Positions 8,951-55,275 of a stretch of 64,000 nucleotides of DNA are shown here, piece after piece (position 1 is the stretch's first letter; each line of letters starts with the position of its first letter). The position numbers and the translations under genes were made by a program. The stretch is taken from NCBI RefSeq assembly GCF_050320075.1, contig NZ_CP190018.1; one strand, given 5' to 3'. The notes below the pieces were generated by a model. The model did no database searches. It was not told where the DNA came from and was given only the letters and a program-made list of their open reading frames with translations. This stretch comes from Escherichia coli (GTDB taxonomy: Bacteria > Pseudomonadota > Gammaproteobacteria > Enterobacterales > Enterobacteriaceae).

Positions 8951-9622
8951 ATGCAGTACCCGATTAACGAGATGTTCCAGACCCTGCAAGGTGAGGGTTA
9001 CTTTACCGGCGTCCCCGCCATTTTTATTCGTTTACAGGGATGCCCGGTTGGCTGTGCCTGGTGCGACACCAAACACACCTGGGAAAAGCTTGAGGATCGG
9101 GAAGTCTCCCTTTTCAGCATTCTGGCGAAGACCAAAGAGAGTGATAAGTGGGGGGCGGCGAGCAGTGAAGACTTGCTGGCTGTCATTGGTCGCCAGGGAT
9201 ACACCGCGCGGCATGTGGTGATTACGGGTGGTGAGCCTTGCATTCATGATTTGCTGCCACTTACTGACCTGCTCGAAAAGAACGGTTTTAGCTGCCAGAT
9301 AGAAACCAGCGGTACTCATGAAGTGCGTTGTACGCCGAATACCTGGGTCACCGTGTCGCCAAAGCTAAATATGCGTGGTGGTTATGAAGTATTGTCGCAA
9401 GCCCTGGAGCGAGCTAACGAAATCAAACACCCAGTTGGACGCGTACGTGATATCGAAGCACTGGATGAATTGCTTGCGACGCTGACCGATGATAAACCGC
9501 GAGTCATTGCACTGCAGCCGATTAGCCAAAAGGATGATGCCACACGTTTGTGCATTGAAACCTGCATTGCGCGTAATTGGCGTTTGTCGATGCAAACACA
9601 TAAATATTTAAATATTGCCTGA
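8951..9622 (+). CDS. queE: 7-carboxy-7-deazaguanine synthase (radical SAM) QueE
   Basis: 223-aa ORF with CxxxCxxC-type cluster motif (GCPVGCAWCDTKHTW); adjacent to a CRISPR array as for ygcF/queE. Confidence 0.93.
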   Translation: MQYPINEMFQTLQGEGYFTGVPAIFIRLQGCPVGCAWCDTKHTWEKLEDREVSLFSILAKTKESDKWGAASSEDLLAVIGRQGYTARHVVITGGEPCIHDLLPLTDLLEKNGFSCQIETSGTHEVRCTPNTWVTVSPKLNMRGGYEVLSQALERANEIKHPVGRVRDIEALDELLATLTDDKPRVIALQPISQKDDATRLCIETCIARNWRLSMQTHKYLNIA

Positions 9623-9869
9623 TTACACATTTATAAGCGTTATAAATGGGTGGAACCTGTAAAGACTTCTACTCATTTATATTCTTTGTCGCCTCTAAAA
9701 AACCTCCATTTTGCCCATCCTGGACTAATCATTATCATTTTCTACAAATTCTGTGGCGTTAATTTTTCGTTGGAGTGAAAATTATTACGTCGGAGTTTGG
9801 TGGATTTTAGTCGGTATAGAATTACTTTAAATATTTGGCTTTTCAATCAATGAATTAAGTGCTCTTTAA

Positions 9870-9960
9870 CATAATGGATGTGTTGTTTGTGTGTTTCTGT
9901 TAAGTTGGTAGATTGTGACTGACTTAAAAAATCAATAATTAATAATAGGTTATGTTTAGT
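9870..9960 (+). promoter_or_regulatory. CRISPR leader for array A (AT-rich, with conserved agttggtagattgt motif 58 bp before the first repeat)
   Basis: AT-rich sequence abutting the first repeat; motif agttggtagattgt at 9903..9916 is shared with the cas-adjacent leader at the same distance from repeat 1. Confidence 0.7.
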
Positions 9961-11209
9961 GAGTTCCCCGCGCCAGCGGGGATAAACCGTTTGCTGAGTG
10001 TGCATACACACTTGAACATCAGAGTTCCCCGCGCCAGCGGGGATAAACCGCTATCAGTAACAACCTGGTAAATATCGGTTTTGAGTTCCCCGCGCCAGCG
10101 GGGATAAACCGTTTTCGGGGCCATAAATGGCGCTCATTTATGTGAGTTCCCCGCGCCAGCGGGGATAAACCGGGAAAATAAACGCGTTATTCCTTGATGG
10201 GTGCGAGTTCCCCGCGCCAGCGGGGATAAACCGAGCAACAGGTATTTCATATGGCCTGCCGTGCTGAGTTCCCCGCGCCAGCGGGGATAAACCGGCCAGC
10301 GGCGCTGAGTACGACGACCTGATTAAGAGTTCCCCGCGCCAGCGGGGATAAACCGTCAATACAACAGCAATGCTGGAGCTGGAAAAAGAGTTCCCCGCGC
10401 CAGCGGGGATAAACCGTGGTGGGATAGCTGCTCTGCCAGCGTGTCGCGGAGTTCCCCGCGCCAGCGGGGATAAACCGTGGGCGCAGCTCATGTATTCCAA
10501 TAAGGATATGAGTTCCCCGCGCCAGCGGGGATAAACCGAGATTCGCGCAATGTACGGTAAAGACAGCACCGAGTTCCCCGCGCCAGCGGGGATAAACCGC
10601 CATTCTTGTTGTCGTTCATCAAGCGCAGGGGGAGTTTCCCGCGCCAGCGGGGATAAACCGTTTGTTTTGATGATTTATCAGTATATGAATTGGAGTTCCC
10701 CGCGCCAGCGGGGATAAACCGATTTTTGCGCGGCCTGCATGAAACCAGTGGCAAAGTTCCCCGCGCCAGCGGGGATAAACCGGTACCGTTGAGCAATGGT
10801 GGGTAAATGGTGCTGAGTTCCCCGCGCCAGCGGGGATAAACCGATTTAGATACGGCACACAGGAATGCGCTGGATGAGTTCCCCGCGCCAGCGGGGATAA
10901 ACCGCATGGGAGTCCAGATTACAAATTCCAGAATGGGAGTTCCCCGCGCCAGCGGGGATAAACCGCGCCAGTCTGAGGTTTTCCGGTCATACATCGTGAG
11001 TTCCCCGCGCCAGCGGGGATAAACCGACCGTTGCTACACATATGATCAGGCATGTGCCGAGTTCCCCGCGCCAGCGGGGATAAACCGGACGATGAGACGC
11101 CCTGGTGTGCCGCGTTCGTGAGTTCCCCGCGCCAGCGGGGATAAACCGCGTTTAGCTCCGCAATGTTGGATATCACTGATGAGTTCCCCGCACCAGCGGG
11201 AATAAACCA
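9961..11209 (+). CRISPR. CRISPR array A: 21 repeats of 29 bp (gagttccccgcgccagcggggataaaccg) and 20 spacers of 32 bp; terminal repeat degenerate
   Basis: exact 61-bp periodicity with repeat starts at 9961, 10022, 10083 ... 11120, 11181; variant repeats at 10632 (gagtttccc) and 10754 (aagttcc); last repeat gagttccccgcaccagcgggaataaaccac. Confidence 0.98.
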
Positions 11210-11680
11210 CCATATAACCCGTTATCTCTTTCTCAAGTTTTTATATTAGCAGTACTCGTATTAAGCAACATATCCACGTAACACCTCATGTTCAAAATAG
11301 CTCTCCATATATGAGAAGTTCACAATTATCGATACAAAAAATCAAATTTAATCAAAGTGTTATTTGTATAATCCTTAAACCGTTAAGAAATTTTAACATA
11401 TTATTTTTTTAATATTAATTAATGCCTGTTAATTTTTTCTTTAGAATAACAGTGTATTTTTTAAGCTTGTTATTCATTGATTAAGTAATAAATCTGGAAA
11501 TTTGTCTTTGTTTTGAGGCTAATGAGTGGTTTTACATAATCGCCTCTATACGCTGTTGATGAATAGTTCTTATGAATAAAGATATCCAGTTCATACTTTA
11601 AGTGAAAATTGATAAAGTGCGATTCGTATTGTCTTTTATTCTAAAGACATCGAGTGTAGTTAATATTCCTTGTAAAAACA

Positions 11681-11800
11681 GGGATAAACCGAACTAGTTA
11701 AAGTTTTTATTATGTTCCCTGCATCAGCGGGGATAAACCGGACTTGTTATCATTTTTTAAGTTGTCGAACTTATGTTCCCCGCGCCAGCGGGGATAACCA
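11681..11800 (+). CRISPR. degenerate CRISPR remnant: one 3' partial repeat plus two decayed repeats, no recognisable leader
   Basis: gggataaaccg at 11681..11691; atgttccctgcatcagcggggataaaccg at 11712..11740; atgttccccgcgccagcggggataacca at 11773..11800, with a 32-bp spacer between the last two. Confidence 0.75.
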
Positions 11801-11846
11801 TTCAGGTATGTTCAGGCCGGGCAGTTTCCCGCCCGGTCTTCCTCAC

Positions 11847-13325
11847 TTACGCATTCGACCAGCTCTGGATCGAATCCGCATTCCCCAATTCCCCATGCAT
11901 CACTTCATACGATTTTTTCAGGATTACATCAGTATGTTTGGTTAACTCCTTGAAAATGCCTTTATTCATCGCGTTGTAGCGTTTGGCGTTGCTCTCAACA
12001 GGCATAAAGATATCTTTCACGCGAACCATTTTGTCGACAGCCGTTGCGTAATCCGGGTATAGCCCCAGACCTACCGCCGTATTAATCGCTGCCCCCAGGC
12101 TTGCACAACCATTAATGGCGTTACGGCGTGCCGGAAGGTTGAACACGTCGGCAAAAATCTGCATAAACAGATCGCTGTTCGAACCGCCGCCAGTAATGAT
12201 CACATGCTTTGCAAAGTGATTCATTTCATTACACATATTGTCGTAATTGTTCTTCAGCGTCAGCGCCACGCTTTCCAGTATCGAACGATATATCCATGCG
12301 TAATCCATGCTGGAATCAAAGCCAATCATAATCCCGCGTTTGTACGGTTCCCACGGATTGGTCAGCCAGTCCAGCACCGTCATCAGACCATTACAGCCTG
12401 GCGGCACACAAGACGCTTTTTTGTTGAGCAAATCTTCCGGTGAAAGATCCTGTGCTTTGGCATCCTGAATTAACGACTCGCCTAACATGTCGCGTAGCCA
12501 GCTCACCGTCCACATGCCTTTGCGAATACCGTAACCTTCATACAGCAAGGTTTGCGGAATAGAAGACATAATCGGCCAGTACGCTACCGGATCTTTCGGT
12601 AGTAATTTGCCGTTCATCATCAACGCGATGTAAGTGCCAAGAGAAATTACCGCAGTTTCATCATCCAGTAACCCGGCTCCCAGTGCTTCTACCGGTTTAT
12701 CACTGGTGGTACAAACAACCGGCAGCCCAGCCGGGAAATGTGTCGCCAGCGCGGCTTGAGGAGTGATATGCCCAAGAACAGTGCCCGGCATTTGCACATC
12801 AAACAGCATATGACGGGGGATATTAAACTTCTCCATGACTGCGGCATCTTCACTCCATGCCCAGGTCTTATAATCCACCGGCCACTGACCAAAATAGTTG
12901 GCGATATTGTCTTTAAACTCGCCGGTTAAGCGATGCGTCAGATAACCCGAAAAAGAGGTGACATATGCCACGTCAGGATTCGTATGTTCGTAAGGGCGTG
13001 TAACGCGTGCATCCTGCCAGCTAATCAACGGCGCAGCTGGCGTGCCATCGGCTTTCAATAACGCACGGCAGCAACGGATGGATCCCAGACCAATACCGAC
13101 AATATCTTCTTTATTTCCGGCAAACTGACTCATCAAATCGTGACCGGCAAAGCATAATGATGCCCATAAATCGTCGTCAGGATGTTCTGCGGTATCGGCA
13201 TCTGGCGTGTGCATCGGCTGCAATAAGCCTTTGCCTTCGCAAACCACATTACCTTCCAGATCGTACATCACCACTTTTGTGCTCTGACTTCCACCATCAA
13301 TCCCTATGATGTATTTTTTCGACAT
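11847..13325 (-). CDS. ygcE: FGGY-family carbohydrate kinase
   Basis: 492-aa ORF MSKKYIIGIDGGSQSTKVVMYDLEG...; FGGY kinase N- and C-domain signatures. Confidence 0.85.
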   Translation of the reverse strand: MSKKYIIGIDGGSQSTKVVMYDLEGNVVCEGKGLLQPMHTPDADTAEHPDDDLWASLCFAGHDLMSQFAGNKEDIVGIGLGSIRCCRALLKADGTPAAPLISWQDARVTRPYEHTNPDVAYVTSFSGYLTHRLTGEFKDNIANYFGQWPVDYKTWAWSEDAAVMEKFNIPRHMLFDVQMPGTVLGHITPQAALATHFPAGLPVVCTTSDKPVEALGAGLLDDETAVISLGTYIALMMNGKLLPKDPVAYWPIMSSIPQTLLYEGYGIRKGMWTVSWLRDMLGESLIQDAKAQDLSPEDLLNKKASCVPPGCNGLMTVLDWLTNPWEPYKRGIMIGFDSSMDYAWIYRSILESVALTLKNNYDNMCNEMNHFAKHVIITGGGSNSDLFMQIFADVFNLPARRNAINGCASLGAAINTAVGLGLYPDYATAVDKMVRVKDIFMPVESNAKRYNAMNKGIFKELTKHTDVILKKSYEVMHGELGNADSIQSWSNA

Positions 13326-29132: not shown

Positions 29133-29341
29133 TGCGAGCAGCATTCCTGATTTTAAACGTGAACGCCGCTGGAAGAATTATCAGGTATAGAATGGCGTTG
29201 GGTGCTTGAGGCTGTCTGGCGTTAAGCATTCGCGAGGTTCCAGATGGACAAAAGCCCCAGGCGATATTTCTATCAACCTGAGGCCAGCGTTCGAACCTAA
29301 GCAATTCGAATGTTAGTCTCTTCTTTGCAGGGAGGCAAGAC

Positions 29342-29494
29342 ATGCTGACAAAATATGCCCTTGTGGCAATCATCGTACTGTGTTGTACAGTACTGGGATT
29401 CACGCTGATGGTAGGCGACTCGTTGTGTGAGTTGAGTATCAGAGAACGTGGTATGGAGTTTAAGGCAGTTCTCGCTTACGAATCGAAGAAGTAG
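29342..29494 (+). CDS. hokX: Hok/Gef-family type I toxin peptide (50 aa), hokX-like
   Basis: [50 protein letters not shown]: N-terminal TM helix plus the Hok C-terminal pattern; below the ORF-track size cutoff; GC hairpin follows the stop. Confidence 0.8.
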
Positions 29495-38250: not shown

Positions 38251-38346
38251 GTTATCTGTTCTTTAAAAATAAGGAAATGTTTTAATTTAGTTGGTAGATT
38301 GTTGATGCGGAATAAATTTGTTTAAAAACAGTTATGTATGCTTAGT
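38251..38346 (+). promoter_or_regulatory. CRISPR leader for the cas-adjacent array B (AT-rich; agttggtagattgt motif at 38289..38302)
   Basis: AT-rich region between cas2 and the first repeat; shares motif and 58-bp spacing with the leader of array A. Confidence 0.75.
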
Positions 38347-38985
38347 GTGTTCCCCGCGTCAGCGGGGATAAACCGACAATCAGATCACGATCGATGCCTC
38401 GCGTGAGGTGTTCCCCGCGTCAGCGGGGATAAACCGATTTTCGCAGCGGGTAACCGCGCCCGGCGATCGTGTTCCCCGCGTCAGCGGGGATAAACCGTTT
38501 ATGTGGAGTATCAGTGCCTGGGTGGAAAGGTGTTCCCCGCGTCAGCGGGGATAAACCGTGGGGCTGAGCATGGCTAAACAACCGAGGCGCGTGTTCCCCG
38601 CGTCAGCGGGGATAAACCGGTCAACTGGCACCACAGGATGATGGCGGCGAAGTGTTCCCCGCGCCAGCGGGGATAAACCGCAGGTCGACCGACTGGAGGC
38701 GGAGATTGTCGGGTGTTCCCCGCGCCAGCGGGGATAAACCGTGTTGTTTTTCTGCCGGATTAACGCGGTGCGAGTGTTCCCCGCGCCAGCGGGGATAAAC
38801 CGTTGTCGGGCTTGTTCGGCGCGGGTTGTTAACTGTGTTCCCCGCGCCAGCGGGGATAAACCGCCAGCGAAGGACTTGCTCGTGTGGTTAAAGCCGTGTT
38901 CCCCGCGTCAGCGGGGATAAACCGGACGCACTGGATGCGATGATGGACATCACTTGGAGTTCCCCGCCCCTGCGGTAGAACTCCC
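38347..38985 (+). CRISPR. CRISPR array B: 11 repeats of 29 bp (gtgttccccgcg[t/c]cagcggggataaaccg), 10 spacers of 32 bp; terminal repeat degenerate
   Basis: 61-bp periodicity with repeat starts at 38347, 38408 ... 38896, 38957; last repeat gagttccccgcccctgcggtagaactccc. Confidence 0.98.
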
Positions 38986-54498: not shown

Positions 54499-55275
54499 TT
54501 AGCGCCAGGCGTCAAACCAGCCAAGCCCTTCTTCGGTGAGGCCACGAGGTTTATATTCACAACCGATCCAGCCCTGATATCCCACCTCATCGAACAGGCG
54601 GAACAGCCACGGATAGTTGATTTCTCCATCGTCCGGTTCATGTCGATCAGGTAGTCCGGCAATTTGTACGTGCGCATATTTCCCGGCGTAGTCGCGGATT
54701 AAATGCGTCAGGTTGCCATCTACTTTTTGCGCATGAAAAGTATCTAGTTGAATAAACACGTTATCTCGTGCAACTTCTTCAACAATAGCCAGTGCCTGAT
54801 ACTGGCTGGAGAAGAGATAATGAGGCTTAACGCCGGGGCTGAGTGCTTCAACTAATATTCGCTTGCCGTGTGGCGCAAAGCGGTCGGCAGCGTAGCGGAG
54901 ATTATCGATAAATACTGCCCTGTACCGTTCAGCATCTTCGCCAGCGGGCACGACGCCTGCCATCACATGGACTTGTTCACAATTGAGCGCCAATGCATAT
55001 TCCAGTGCCAGGTCGATGTCTGCGTGTGCTTCGTGCTCACGTCCGGGAAGGGCGGATAATCCCCATTCCCCCGCATTAATATCTCCGGGAGCGGTATTGA
55101 ACAGCGCCAGTGTCAGATGGTTTTGCTCCAGTTGCTTTTGGATTTGCAGGGTGGAGTAGTCATAGGGAAACAGAAATTCCACAGCATCGAACCCGGCTTT
55201 TCGCGCTGCGGCGAAGCGTTCAATAAAAGGCACTTCGGTGAACATCATGGATAAATTAGCTGCAAAACGAGGCAT
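54499..55275 (-). CDS. ygbM: hydroxypyruvate-isomerase-like TIM-barrel isomerase (2-oxo-tetronate isomerase OtnI-type)
   Basis: 258-aa ORF; xylose-isomerase-like TIM barrel; operon context. Confidence 0.8.

Follow-up and report, generated by a model that had tools for sequence, protein, structure and literature searches.

Organization of the CRISPR-II locus

The window – the whole 64-kb stretch of DNA analyzed – carries a locus whose elements run in the order queE, leader 2.3, CRISPR2.3, an AT-rich tract of ~450 bp, CRISPR2.2, a hairpin, and ygcE on the opposite strand. The upstream flank is queE (ygcF; 8951–9622, + strand), a 223-amino acid ORF that is annotated as queE in a 100%-identical genome and in K-12. 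The functional leader 2.3 (9623–9960, +) is AT-rich and conserved among Escherichia species, with a mean column identity of 95%. It is followed by CRISPR2.3 (9961–11209, +), an array of 21 type I-E repeats with a 61-nt period that an earlier sequence-only reading of this DNA called array A, and whose last repeat (11181–11209) is decayed. Beyond the tract and the CRISPR2.2 mini-array lies a GC-rich hairpin (11814–11839) with a predicted 9-bp stem, which, judged from this predicted fold, is probably a terminator and perhaps a bidirectional one. The mini-array ends 46 bp from the stop codon of ygcE (11847–13325, −), a 492-amino acid ORF that is convergent with the arrays and annotated as an FGGY-family sugar kinase.

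The region corresponds to the trailer half of CRISPR-II, an E. coli locus that extends from queE/ygcF to ygcE. The CRISPR2.2/CRISPR2.3 nomenclature is that of the Mojica group and is used in PMC3903273, PMC4489801, and PMC3737337. In the literature, CRISPR2.2 has three degenerate type-2 repeats and two invariable spacers, lies 0.5 kb from CRISPR2.3, and has no leader of its own – leaders adjoin only CRISPR2.1 and CRISPR2.3. Touchon and Rocha (2010; PMC2886076) also described a highly conserved non-coding sequence of ~0.5 kb within CRISPR2, to which the tract corresponds. Flanking genes, orientation, and separation all match here: three degenerate repeats with two invariable spacers and no adjoining leader lie between ygcE and queE/ygcF, ~0.5 kb past CRISPR2.3. 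We found no essential difference from the published description, and the locus is CRISPR-II itself. Relative to K-12, the tract and mini-array together are 96.6% identical and the tract alone is 95.8% identical.

The locus has thus already been described and is ordinary, except that the CRISPR2.2 stub is conserved beyond what would be expected of a neutral fossil. Our analysis adds outgroup states, a two-part structure of the tract, natural deletion variants of the mini-array, and an extra fossil repeat, and the conservation contrast described below also goes beyond the literature. The extra fossil repeat is a probable one at approximately 11245–11274 (+), after a spacer-like segment (11210–11244). 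It is unrecognizable as a repeat on its own and is visible only as the positional homologue of a better-preserved repeat (CGTTCCCTGTATCAGCAATAAATAACAT) in a divergent Escherichia genome (L008).

CRISPR2.2 contains three degenerate repeats and two fixed spacers

A 27-nt repeat pattern, searched with up to 3 mismatches, matched 11183–11209, 11714–11740, and 11775–11801, with 0 matches expected by chance. The latter two matches are the two decayed repeats flanking one 32-bp spacer that the sequence-only reading had reported, and both repeats and spacer are present: R2 (11712–11740, +; ATGTTCCCTGCATCAGCGGGGATAAACCG) and R3 (11773–11801, +), the terminal repeat, whose 3′ end is degenerate (...GGGGATAACCAT), each differ from the 27-nt core at 3 positions and flank S2 (11741–11772, +; 32 nt, 28% GC). 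A ‘partial repeat’ had also been placed at 11681–11691. Repeat sequence does occur there, as the intact 3′ end of R1 (11663–11691, +; ATATTCCTTGTAAAAACAGGGATAAACCG), a heavily degenerate repeat of full length that matches the consensus at 18 of 29 positions (null 95th percentile, 15). Since R1 is full length, the mini-array comprises, together with R2 and R3, three repeats and two spacers (20 and 32 nt), as does CRISPR2.2. The R2–R3 period is 61 nt, while R1 and R2 are only 49 nt apart and enclose the short spacer S1 (11692–11711, +; 15% GC).

Consistent with membership in a type I-E array, the repeats (cluster 2) share the orientation of the neighboring array. All three are predicted to fold in the consensus 7-bp/4-nt register of a Cas6e-type hairpin (−7.9, −12.1, and −15.1 kcal/mol for R1, R2, and R3, respectively), R2 keeping its hairpin with one U-G wobble pair. 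R1 is identical in E. coli and L008.

What had been read as a degenerate second array is the named CRISPR2.2, and it does not acquire spacers. We observed no spacer turnover: S1 and S2 are identical, without a single substitution, in 11 diverse alleles and are unchanged in most of 72 metagenome copies, S2 differing at two positions in L008. Variation of the two spacers among these alleles and metagenome copies is limited to unit deletions and rare point changes, and no new spacer was found at R1 in any genome examined. S2 is deleted together with R2 in the O145 lineage and in three metagenome loci (L095, L129, and L163), S1 is absent together with R2 from L008 and one metagenome locus (L174), and in one assembly ~155 bp are missing, among them some of the conserved block described below. 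These natural deletions imply that no single part of the element is indispensable.

No protospacer of S1 or S2 was found in phages or plasmids, and we rejected the idea that they are ordinary anti-phage or anti-plasmid spacers. The literature searched yielded no report of crRNAs from CRISPR2.2. As a separate observation, pairwise comparisons among S1, S2, and the spacer-like segment after the last CRISPR2.3 repeat are suggestive of a common origin (p ~0.003–0.08 per pair); we make no use of this below.

The separator is an old AT-rich tract that overlaps the equivalent of a K-12 promoter island

The sequence-only reading had described an AT-rich, ORF-free tract after the decayed last repeat of CRISPR2.3. 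The tract is real: it spans 453 nt (11210–11662), its longest internal ORF is 33 amino acids, and its GC content is 27.4%, compared with 51.4% for the whole window, with a local minimum of 17%. The 453-nt segment with the highest AT content in the 64 kb overlaps the tract, and only 0.16% of segments of this length are equally AT-rich.

The tract is present in single copy in 4164 of the 5426 complete E. coli genomes. We found no homologue in phages or true plasmids – the sole ‘plasmid’ matches were mis-filed chromosomes of 4.8–4.9 Mb. A mobile element, phage, or plasmid fragment was rejected as its source given the single copy per genome, the lack of terminal inverted repeats, and the lack of a phage match. 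A fully decayed run of repeats and spacers was likewise rejected, because the best repeat match inside the tract (12 of 29 positions) equals the shuffled expectation. Searches of the region against Rfam 15 gave no match at gathering thresholds and only noise at relaxed thresholds (E ≥ 1.3), and a known RNA family was rejected.

Arrays interrupted by foreign DNA offer a partial parallel. In E. coli ATCC 8739, an IS within CRISPR2 (PMC2886076) has similarly split an array into an active leader-proximal part and a leader-distal orphan. Unlike that interruption, the tract has no transposase, terminal inverted repeats, second copy, or homologue anywhere searched, and it is old, being shared with a species-level relative.

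H-NS-bound promoter islands, as the Ozoline laboratory defines them, span 300 bp or more and contain, per 100 bp, no fewer than eight start points predicted by PlatProm; those of K-12 have been described by Shavkunov et al. 2009 (PMC2731890) and Panyukov and Ozoline 2013 (PMC3661553). Mapping through the K-12 locus (L088) places positions 11229–11574 of the tract as the equivalent of the K-12 island at 2,901,670–2,902,016 (U00096.2), which is listed as 2901670_347, ‘ygcE(+)/queE(-), intergenic convergent’, and is H-NS-bound ‘according to all studies’ (PMC3661553, Table 1, Table S1). The same catalog records binding of RNA polymerase to this island (PMC3661553). The suggestion, made from the sequence alone, that the tract might be H-NS-bound is thus supported by the literature through a secondary table (PMC3661553) and the 95.8%-identical K-12 orthologue. 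The tract resembles other H-NS-bound promoter islands in being very AT-rich. Most promoter islands, however, lie beside horizontally acquired genes, whereas this one is placed between the two arrays of a CRISPR locus, where there is no gene for it to silence. A simple consensus promoter scan of the tract gave 7 sites against 5.0 ± 2.4 expected from shuffled sequence, which is no excess; one site, a weak –35/–10-like match at 11513–11540 (9 of 12 positions), is conserved.

In K-12, the very AT-rich center of the tract is a nucleoid-protein platform that binds H-NS and RNA polymerase with little productive transcription. We propose that it is silenced and that it insulates the end of CRISPR2.3 as a spacer. 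E. coli CRISPR1 and CRISPR2 are co-regulated by H-NS (PMC2886076), and the tract may act with the H-NS-bound leader 2.3 in keeping the array repressed. It may also prevent read-through from the array from running antisense into ygcE.

CRISPR2.2 resembles the trailer end of a single array

The sequence-only reading took CRISPR2.2 for the fossil of an older array with an eroded leader, which the tract might once have been; in this view, the array was formerly independent and stopped acquiring spacers as its leader decayed. Several properties fit. The tract lies directly upstream of R1, abutting it, in the correct orientation on the transcribed strand, and its AT-richness is like that of functional leaders (27% GC, compared with 31% for leader 2.3 and 25% for leader 2.1). 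As in a true leader, its repeat-proximal ~120 bp are conserved and its distal part is variable, and H-NS likewise targets the functional leaders of E. coli. The tract is also old, as its near-neutral divergence from L008 indicates, and forms without it could be secondary deletions between repeats.

Sequence similarity to the known leaders is nevertheless missing. Leaders 2.3 and 2.1 share an exact 14-nt motif (AGTTGGTAGATTGT) whose only sites in the window, in a search that tolerated 3 mismatches, are 9903 and 38289, and it is absent from the tract; local alignments of the tract to either leader score within the shuffled range. We accordingly rejected a relationship of the tract to either leader. 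Polarized integration of spacers at R1 is also lacking in the genomes examined: spacers show no polymorphism anywhere, and R1, the leader-adjacent repeat, is the most degenerate of the three, although integration needs an intact first repeat. Degenerate repeats occur on the CRISPR2.3 side of the tract as well, a pattern that fits old trailer repeats flanking an interruption, and the literature assigns CRISPR2.2 no leader. Together with the origin of R3, described next, these observations speak against the eroded-leader proposal, which we consider unlikely.

Outgroup states connect R3 to the end of a single array. In the B2 E. coli strain Nissle, in E. albertii, and in E. whittamii, leader 2.3 is followed by one to three repeats and no tract, and the array ends in a ...GGGGATAACCAT repeat that adjoins the same hairpin as R3. 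In Citrobacter, Enterobacter, Klebsiella, and others, queE and ygcE converge with only a related hairpin between them and no CRISPR. R3 is therefore the terminal, ancestral trailer repeat of the single array found in tract-less Escherichia, and CRISPR2.2 looks like an orphaned, leader-distal stub of what elsewhere is one queE–ygcE array. The ~450 bp of non-leader DNA would cut this stub off from any leader, so that it gains no spacers and keeps the same ones in nearly all strains.

The tract could have been inserted into one array, or could have been deleted by recombination between repeats in the lineages that lack it. L008 carries the tract at 76% identity, close to neutral given a divergence of 25.6% at fourfold degenerate sites of ygcE, which suggests a secondary loss in the B2 strains that lack it. 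We counted 245 genomes with the Nissle-type tract-less junction, a number that undercounts tract-less genomes since the state has other forms, one of them a replacement by the csc sucrose operon.

The end of the tract and the mini-array are unusually conserved

The tract is not uniform. Its center (11278–11539) varies about like fourfold degenerate sites: among 11 alleles that were picked for diversity, not at random, 43 of 262 positions segregate in the center, compared with 11 of 56 fourfold sites in ygcE. Over the same alleles, 2 of 110 positions segregate from R1 through S2 (p = 1e-4). The last ~120 bp of the tract form a conserved 3′ block (11540–11662, +) with predicted small hairpins at 11571–11595 and 11630–11649 and an invariant core at 11552–11601, in which 0 of 50 positions segregate (p = 7e-4). 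Parsimony-informative sites number 29 in the center, 3 in the block and mini-array, 5 in the segment after the array, and 26 at the 3′ end of ygcE. The contrast also holds across genomes, as 11540–11801 is at least 99% identical in 3564 of 4163 genomes, whereas the adjacent 11278–11539 reaches this level in only 294 of 4146. Divergence of the block from L008 is 15%, compared with 25–34% for the remainder of the tract.

The mini-array and the final ~120 bp of the tract thus show about ten-fold less variation than the tract center, both in the 11 alleles and across ~4160 genomes. Because the center itself evolves at near the fourfold rate, this contrast argues that the stub is constrained, and the block and mini-array are, by this comparative measure, apparently under purifying selection. 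Calling the element a fossil is thus only partly justified, since the mini-array and the preceding ~120 bp show much stronger conservation than do synonymous sites in the neighboring gene. The sequence-only reading named a conserved functional element unrelated to CRISPR as the finding that would refute it. The 3′ block goes part of the way, being conserved, but nothing shows that it is unrelated to CRISPR.

A purely neutral fossil, with low diversity caused by local mutation rate, gene conversion, or recent recombinational spread and with no function, would account for the toleration of deletion variants and for the lack of any target, annotation, or RNA family. Retention of the R1 hairpin is, taken alone, not significant (~0.08–0.16 by our own simple count of transition placements). 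Yet the stretch of low diversity, ~240 bp without a single informative site, is bordered on either side by haplotypes that are deep and recombining (29 and 31 such sites), and the conservation spans a species-level split, with ~4% divergence of R1, S2, and R3 from L008 against 25.6% at fourfold sites. Gene conversion from other repeats, moreover, cannot preserve S1, S2, or the block. Neutrality consequently strikes us as quite improbable.

Candidate functions of the conserved segment

The constraint would most likely be explained by transcription of the block and mini-array into a + strand RNA that contains all three repeat hairpins and terminates at the hairpin near ygcE. Such an RNA – with the block as promoter and 5′ part – might have been domesticated, either as a crRNA-like guide of the CreA/CreR type with which Cascade represses a partly matching promoter, or as a small regulatory RNA that acts independently of Cas and is stabilized by the repeat hairpins. 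Strong purifying selection on R1-S1-R2-S2 and the upstream core favors an RNA of this kind, as do the Cas6e hairpins in all three repeats and the intact 5′-handle and hairpin that R2 and R3 keep around S2. The weak conserved promoter-like site lies just upstream of the block, a terminator-like hairpin lies downstream, and in the literature an sRNA (HB_171) is computationally predicted between ygcE and ygcF. Transitions at Watson-Crick positions of the predicted stems leave a wobble pair on the + strand rather than a mismatch by 10 to 1, a post hoc tally of our own that excludes two changes of G-U pairs. One predicted-stem pair in the block runs from UA through UG to CG and is compensated. A covariation test carries no information, as the observed value was attained in 105 of 500 shuffles and variation is too low, and we rejected covariation as support for the predicted hairpins. 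The Nissle-type B2 genomes examined, which have a single array and neither tract nor CRISPR2.2, also favor a regulatory RNA, and B2 strains are not known to carry I-E cas genes. Touchon and Rocha noted the absence of CRISPR1/CRISPR2 from some B2 genomes (PMC2886076).

CreA and CreR are crRNA-like regulatory RNAs of type I systems, and CreTA modules are toxin-antitoxin RNA pairs. The mini-array resembles CreA and CreR in having minimal degenerate repeats around a fixed pseudo-spacer that is conserved rather than turned over. Unlike them, it has no PAM-flanked promoter target in the 64 kb and no adjacent toxin candidate, and it lies ~26 kb from the cas operon. On both strands of the window, neither S1 nor S2 gave a match of seed plus PAM to any promoter, that of the cas operon included. 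The only match that combines a 7/7 seed, 10/12 positions, and an ATG PAM falls inside a 258-amino acid ORF (54499–55275, −), which we take to be a hydroxypyruvate-isomerase-family gene, and total matches elsewhere in the 64 kb reach at most 19 of 32 positions. S1 and S2 were thus rejected as CreA-like guides to a promoter within the window. The missing phage and plasmid protospacers and Rfam match also weigh against a regulatory RNA, as does the existence of strains without S1 and strains without S2. On balance, we regard a regulatory RNA as doubtful.

The block might instead encode a small protein, either a 31-amino acid ORF (11602–11697, +) or a 20-amino acid ORF (11594–11532, −). The GTG start of the longer ORF is ATG in strain EC556, which also carries three substitutions in it (11619, 11622, and 11625) that fall at consecutive third positions and are synonymous. 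Neither start is preceded by a Shine-Dalgarno sequence, however, and compared with L008 the 31-amino acid ORF shows ~1 synonymous to 7 non-synonymous changes and a C-terminus altered by the S1-R2 deletion, and the 20-amino acid ORF is cut to 13 amino acids in L008. Conservation reaches well past both ORFs into S1, R2, and S2. Coding signals this weak and inconsistent across L008 led us to reject both as genes, and we consider a small protein very improbable.

Discussion

We consider it likely that the region is a CRISPR2.2 trailer stub set apart by a non-leader, H-NS platform tract whose 3′ part is constrained. Underlying this reading are the observed anatomy and identity of the locus, the absence of the leader motif, the outgroup states, and the conservation contrast; to these it joins the binding of H-NS and RNA polymerase published for K-12 and, by inference, a + strand transcript and a silencing or insulating role.

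The finding by itself matters little, since the feature already has a name and lies in the most thoroughly studied CRISPR locus. The gains are modest. The mini-array can be read as the trailer stub of a single ancestral queE–ygcE array, and the separator is not a relative of a leader but an AT-rich center that varies like fourfold sites and is H-NS-bound in K-12, followed by a constrained block of ~120 bp. The ‘invariable’ spacers, in turn, are invariable beyond what descent alone explains.

A more speculative extension, to which we give little weight, is that 11540–11801 is a domesticated CRISPR remnant under purifying selection, both in E. coli and in one or more sister lineages of Escherichia. 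Expressed from the + strand, it would serve as a crRNA-like guide or as an sRNA based on repeat hairpins, outside ordinary adaptive immunity, and be freed when H-NS silencing of the adjoining AT-rich island lifts. Should the constrained part turn out to be transcribed into RNA, E. coli itself would offer a case in which a leftover of CRISPR has taken on a different role. This would explain why approximately three quarters of the complete E. coli genomes examined keep an apparently useless three-repeat array.

The feature is the known CRISPR2.2 array and its separator

The genes flanking the feature are queE (ygcF) and ygcE, which identifies the locus as CRISPR-II of E. coli. CRISPR-II has been described as a single array (CRISPR2.2-3) or as CRISPR2.2 and CRISPR2.3 'separated by 0.5 kb', with leaders adjoining CRISPR2.1 and CRISPR2.3 only (PMC3903273, PMC3737337). 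Given this location and description, the feature is a re-discovery of a named one – the CRISPR2.2 array and its 0.5-kb separator. Of 5,426 complete E. coli genomes, 4,175 each carry a single copy of the tract plus mini-array, which we found on no plasmid and under no annotation; ygcE is present in 5,372.

CRISPR2.3 (9961-11209, + strand) comprises 21 type I-E repeats with a 61-nt period and ends in a decayed repeat (11181-11209, + strand; GAGTTCCCCGCACCAGCGGGAATAAACCA). The AT-rich tract that follows (11210-11662, 453 nt) is 27.4% GC, compared with 51.4% in the window, with a local minimum of 17%, and the most AT-rich segment of that size in the 64 kb overlaps it. Its longest ORF is 33 aa. The sequence-only observation of a degenerate second array lying past AT-rich, ORF-free DNA is confirmed. 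This mini-array consists of repeats R1 (11663-11691; ATATTCCTTGTAAAAACAGGGATAAACCG), R2 (11712-11740) and R3 (11773-11801, degenerate at its 3' end), all on the + strand, and spacers S1 (20 nt) and S2 (32 nt). The partial repeat proposed at 11681-11691 has its 11 nt intact but is actually the 3' end of the full R1, which matches the consensus at 18/29 positions and whose predicted fold has exactly the hairpin register of the consensus repeat. We rejected the tract itself as a run of decayed repeats, its best match being 12/29 and the null 95th percentile 15. Past the mini-array, ygcE ends after 46 bp on the opposite strand, with a GC-rich hairpin in between.

We observed that the repeat at 10634-10660 (GTTTCCCGCG…), with a C-to-T change in the 5' stem arm, is the sole imperfect internal repeat of CRISPR2.3. 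The spacer-like segment that follows the final repeat of CRISPR2.3 (11210-11247), S1 (11692-11711) and S2 (11741-11772) are mutually similar; the segment has an exact AAGTTTTTAT in common with S1 and GTTATC…AAGTT in common with S2. These similarities hint that the units could be old duplicates (p about 0.003-0.08 per pair, which is weak).

CRISPR2.2 as a probable remnant of a single ancestral array

A terminator hairpin alone separates the convergent queE and ygcE in Citrobacter, Enterobacter, Klebsiella, Cedecea and others, implying that CRISPR-II as a whole was added in Escherichia. Leader 2.3 (the functional leader of CRISPR2.3) is present in E. albertii, E. whittamii and the B2 E. coli strain Nissle, followed by 1-3 repeats and, beside the hairpin that also follows R3 in the window, a terminal repeat with the same end as R3 (...GGGGATAACCAT), with no tract. 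The shared terminal repeat and hairpin in these tract-less lineages indicate that R3 represents the ancestral trailer repeat of CRISPR-II. Judged from this comparison, CRISPR2.2 is the leader-distal stub of a single ancestral array.

A divergent Escherichia genome (L008) carries the tract at 76% identity with an R1-S2-R3 mini-array. In ygcE, 25.6% of 4-fold sites differ between L008 and the window; the tract has thus diverged about as far as synonymous sites and is old. In B2 strains without the tract, repeat-repeat recombination probably removed it. One unit past its last good CRISPR2.3 repeat, L008 also retains a recognisable degenerate repeat, CGTTCCCTGTATCAGCAATAAATAACAT, whose E. coli counterpart (~11245-11274) has decayed beyond recognition. 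With the mini-array, this repeat places degenerate repeats on both sides of the tract, which may have entered an existing array; alternatively, two arrays may once have stood in tandem.

Several loci depart from this organization. 'E. coli SCPM-O-B-8794', a divergent Escherichia, has no CRISPR between queE and ygcE (its locus L037, 7480-7617); the interval holds just ~138 bp of AT-rich sequence and a relative of the hairpin at window 11814-11839, which therefore predates the array. In the tract-less strain KS21, sucrose-utilisation genes (cscK, a porin) lie directly beside ygcE, with no queE inside 2.5 kb; from these neighbours, the CRISPR-II region appears to have been replaced. OkiPb01688, also tract-less, has an IS1 just past the first 62 bp of the tract and lacks ygcE and yqcE, a truncated SDR-family gene (probably ygcW) alone remaining. 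In RM9245, F437 and Z142-3, ygcE is cut to its 3' 456 bp and fused directly to queD/cysJ, and yqcE, ygcW and following genes are deleted; the tract and CRISPR2.2 are intact.

The tract shows no similarity to the leaders and its K-12 orthologue is reported to bind H-NS

The tract had been proposed to be a former leader or an H-NS-bound silencer. Leader 2.3 (9623-9960) and leader 2.1, that of CRISPR2.1 (38251-38346), align with each other and have an exact AGTTGGTAGATTGT motif in common (at 9903 and 38289, some 45-60 nt ahead of the respective first repeat). The similarity of the tract to either leader does not exceed shuffled controls, and the motif is absent from it with up to three mismatches allowed; an eroded leader of an older array is thus not supported. 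We also found no inverted termini, second copy, or phage or true plasmid homologue of the tract, and no Rfam family matching the region.

Leader 2.3 of this strain shares just ~90.5-91% identity with its counterparts in K-12, O157, Nissle and L008 and 92.3% with that in E. albertii, with private changes spread across it, a few close to the repeat. The literature describes this leader as 'similar in all cases'; the present haplotype is common to about 300 complete genomes. In CRISPR2.1 (38251-38952, directly after cas2), the leader is short (~96 nt), two variants of the repeat are intermixed (…CGCGTCAGC… and …CGCGCCAGC…), and the last repeat, GAGTTCCCCGCCCCTGCGGTAGAACTCC, is strongly degenerate. 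About 9 kb upstream of this array, the Rfam family of the sok antitoxin RNA (RF01794) is matched over its full length (29200-29357, + strand; 111.7 bits, gathering score 59); judging from K-12, this is probably the sokX/hok-like remnant that lies near cas3/cysH.

The K-12 orthologue of the tract (U00096.3 2,903,559-2,904,012) is 95.8% identical. For published promoter islands in U00096.2 coordinates we assumed a +1,977 bp shift to U00096.3; the listed queE/yqcG island agrees with the K-12 annotation under this shift, and a check on the casA/cas3 island used presumed gene coordinates. The K-12 orthologue then contains the island 2,901,670-2,902,016 (window ~11229-11574), listed as 'ygcE(+)/queE(-), intergenic convergent' and as H-NS-bound 'according to all studies' (Grainger, Oshima, Kahramanoglou) (PMC3661553). 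For all islands (78/78), binding of RNA polymerase with scant productive transcription is reported, and the same group mentions a computational prediction of an sRNA, HB_171, between ygcE and ygcF (PMC3661553, PMC2731890); we found no experimental follow-up of HB_171 in the literature. The published K-12 data thus support an H-NS-bound tract. Its AT-rich centre (11278-11539) is most likely an H-NS platform at the CRISPR2.3 trailer end, which would silence or insulate.

The stub and adjacent block vary less than the tract centre

Among about 4,150 genomes, the centre is at least 99% identical to the window in just 294 and 90-95% identical in 3,296, whereas the adjacent 11540-11801, of the same length, is at least 99% identical in 3,564; the ygcE 3' end, on the far side of that segment, is again 95-99% identical in 5,043 genomes. 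Across 11 alleles picked for diversity, 43/262 sites segregate in the centre and 11/56 at ygcE 4-fold sites, which we read as about the usual neutral level (theta roughly 0.06 by our own arithmetic). The corresponding counts are 2/110 for R1-S1-R2-S2 (Fisher p = 1e-4) and 0/50 for the core (11552-11601) of the block that precedes R1 (11540-11662; p = 7e-4). Parsimony-informative sites number 29 in the centre, 3 in the block and mini-array, 5 in the 45 bp after R3 and 26 in the ygcE 3' end, and recombinant haplotypes occur on either side of the low-diversity segment. L008 has the same R1 as E. coli and differs from it at 2/32 positions in S2 and 2/29 in R3, compared with 25.6% of 4-fold sites.

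This low diversity and divergence argue that the stub and the preceding ~120 bp are under constraint, while the centre varies about like 4-fold sites. The description of the region as a fossil therefore holds for the tract centre alone. Being cut off from any leader, the stub would not acquire spacers, and its invariance supports its reading as a non-acquiring remnant. EC556 carries a rare block allele (L089 3560-3640, equivalent to window 11600-11680) with at least four variants in common with L008 (11619 A, 11627 C, 11628 G, 11645 G), which suggests introgression or old polymorphism; the ygcE of EC556 is frameshifted.

R1, R2 and R3 each keep a Cas6e-type hairpin in predicted folds, although retention in R1 alone is not significant (about 0.08-0.16 by our simple count of transition placements). 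An essential guide-RNA role is disfavoured: no promoter in the 64 kb, cas operon included, carries a seed-plus-PAM match to S1 or S2, and no S2 protospacer was found among phages or plasmids. Natural deletions also occur, of R2-S2 (O145 RM9154 and metagenome loci L095, L129 and L163), of S1-R2 (L008, L174) and of ~155 bp of tract including part of the block (one assembly); the small ORFs of the block are not conserved in L008. Small + strand hairpins are predicted at 11571-11595 and 11630-11649, one pair of the latter being U-A in most strains, U-G in EC556 and L121, and C-G in L008. In our post hoc tally of transitions at Watson-Crick stem positions, with two changes at G-U pairs left out, about ten yield a + strand wobble and one breaks a pair; in a covariation test the observed value was reached by 105/500 shuffles. 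A weak promoter-like site lies at 11513-11540 (TTGAGG-16-CATAAT/C), and a + strand transcript could terminate at the hairpin nearest ygcE.

The stub and upstream block are most likely kept by selection, as what we infer is probably a + strand structured RNA; a genuine regulatory function seems unlikely. The constraint on the stub and block goes further than the remark in the literature that spacers are 'invariable'.
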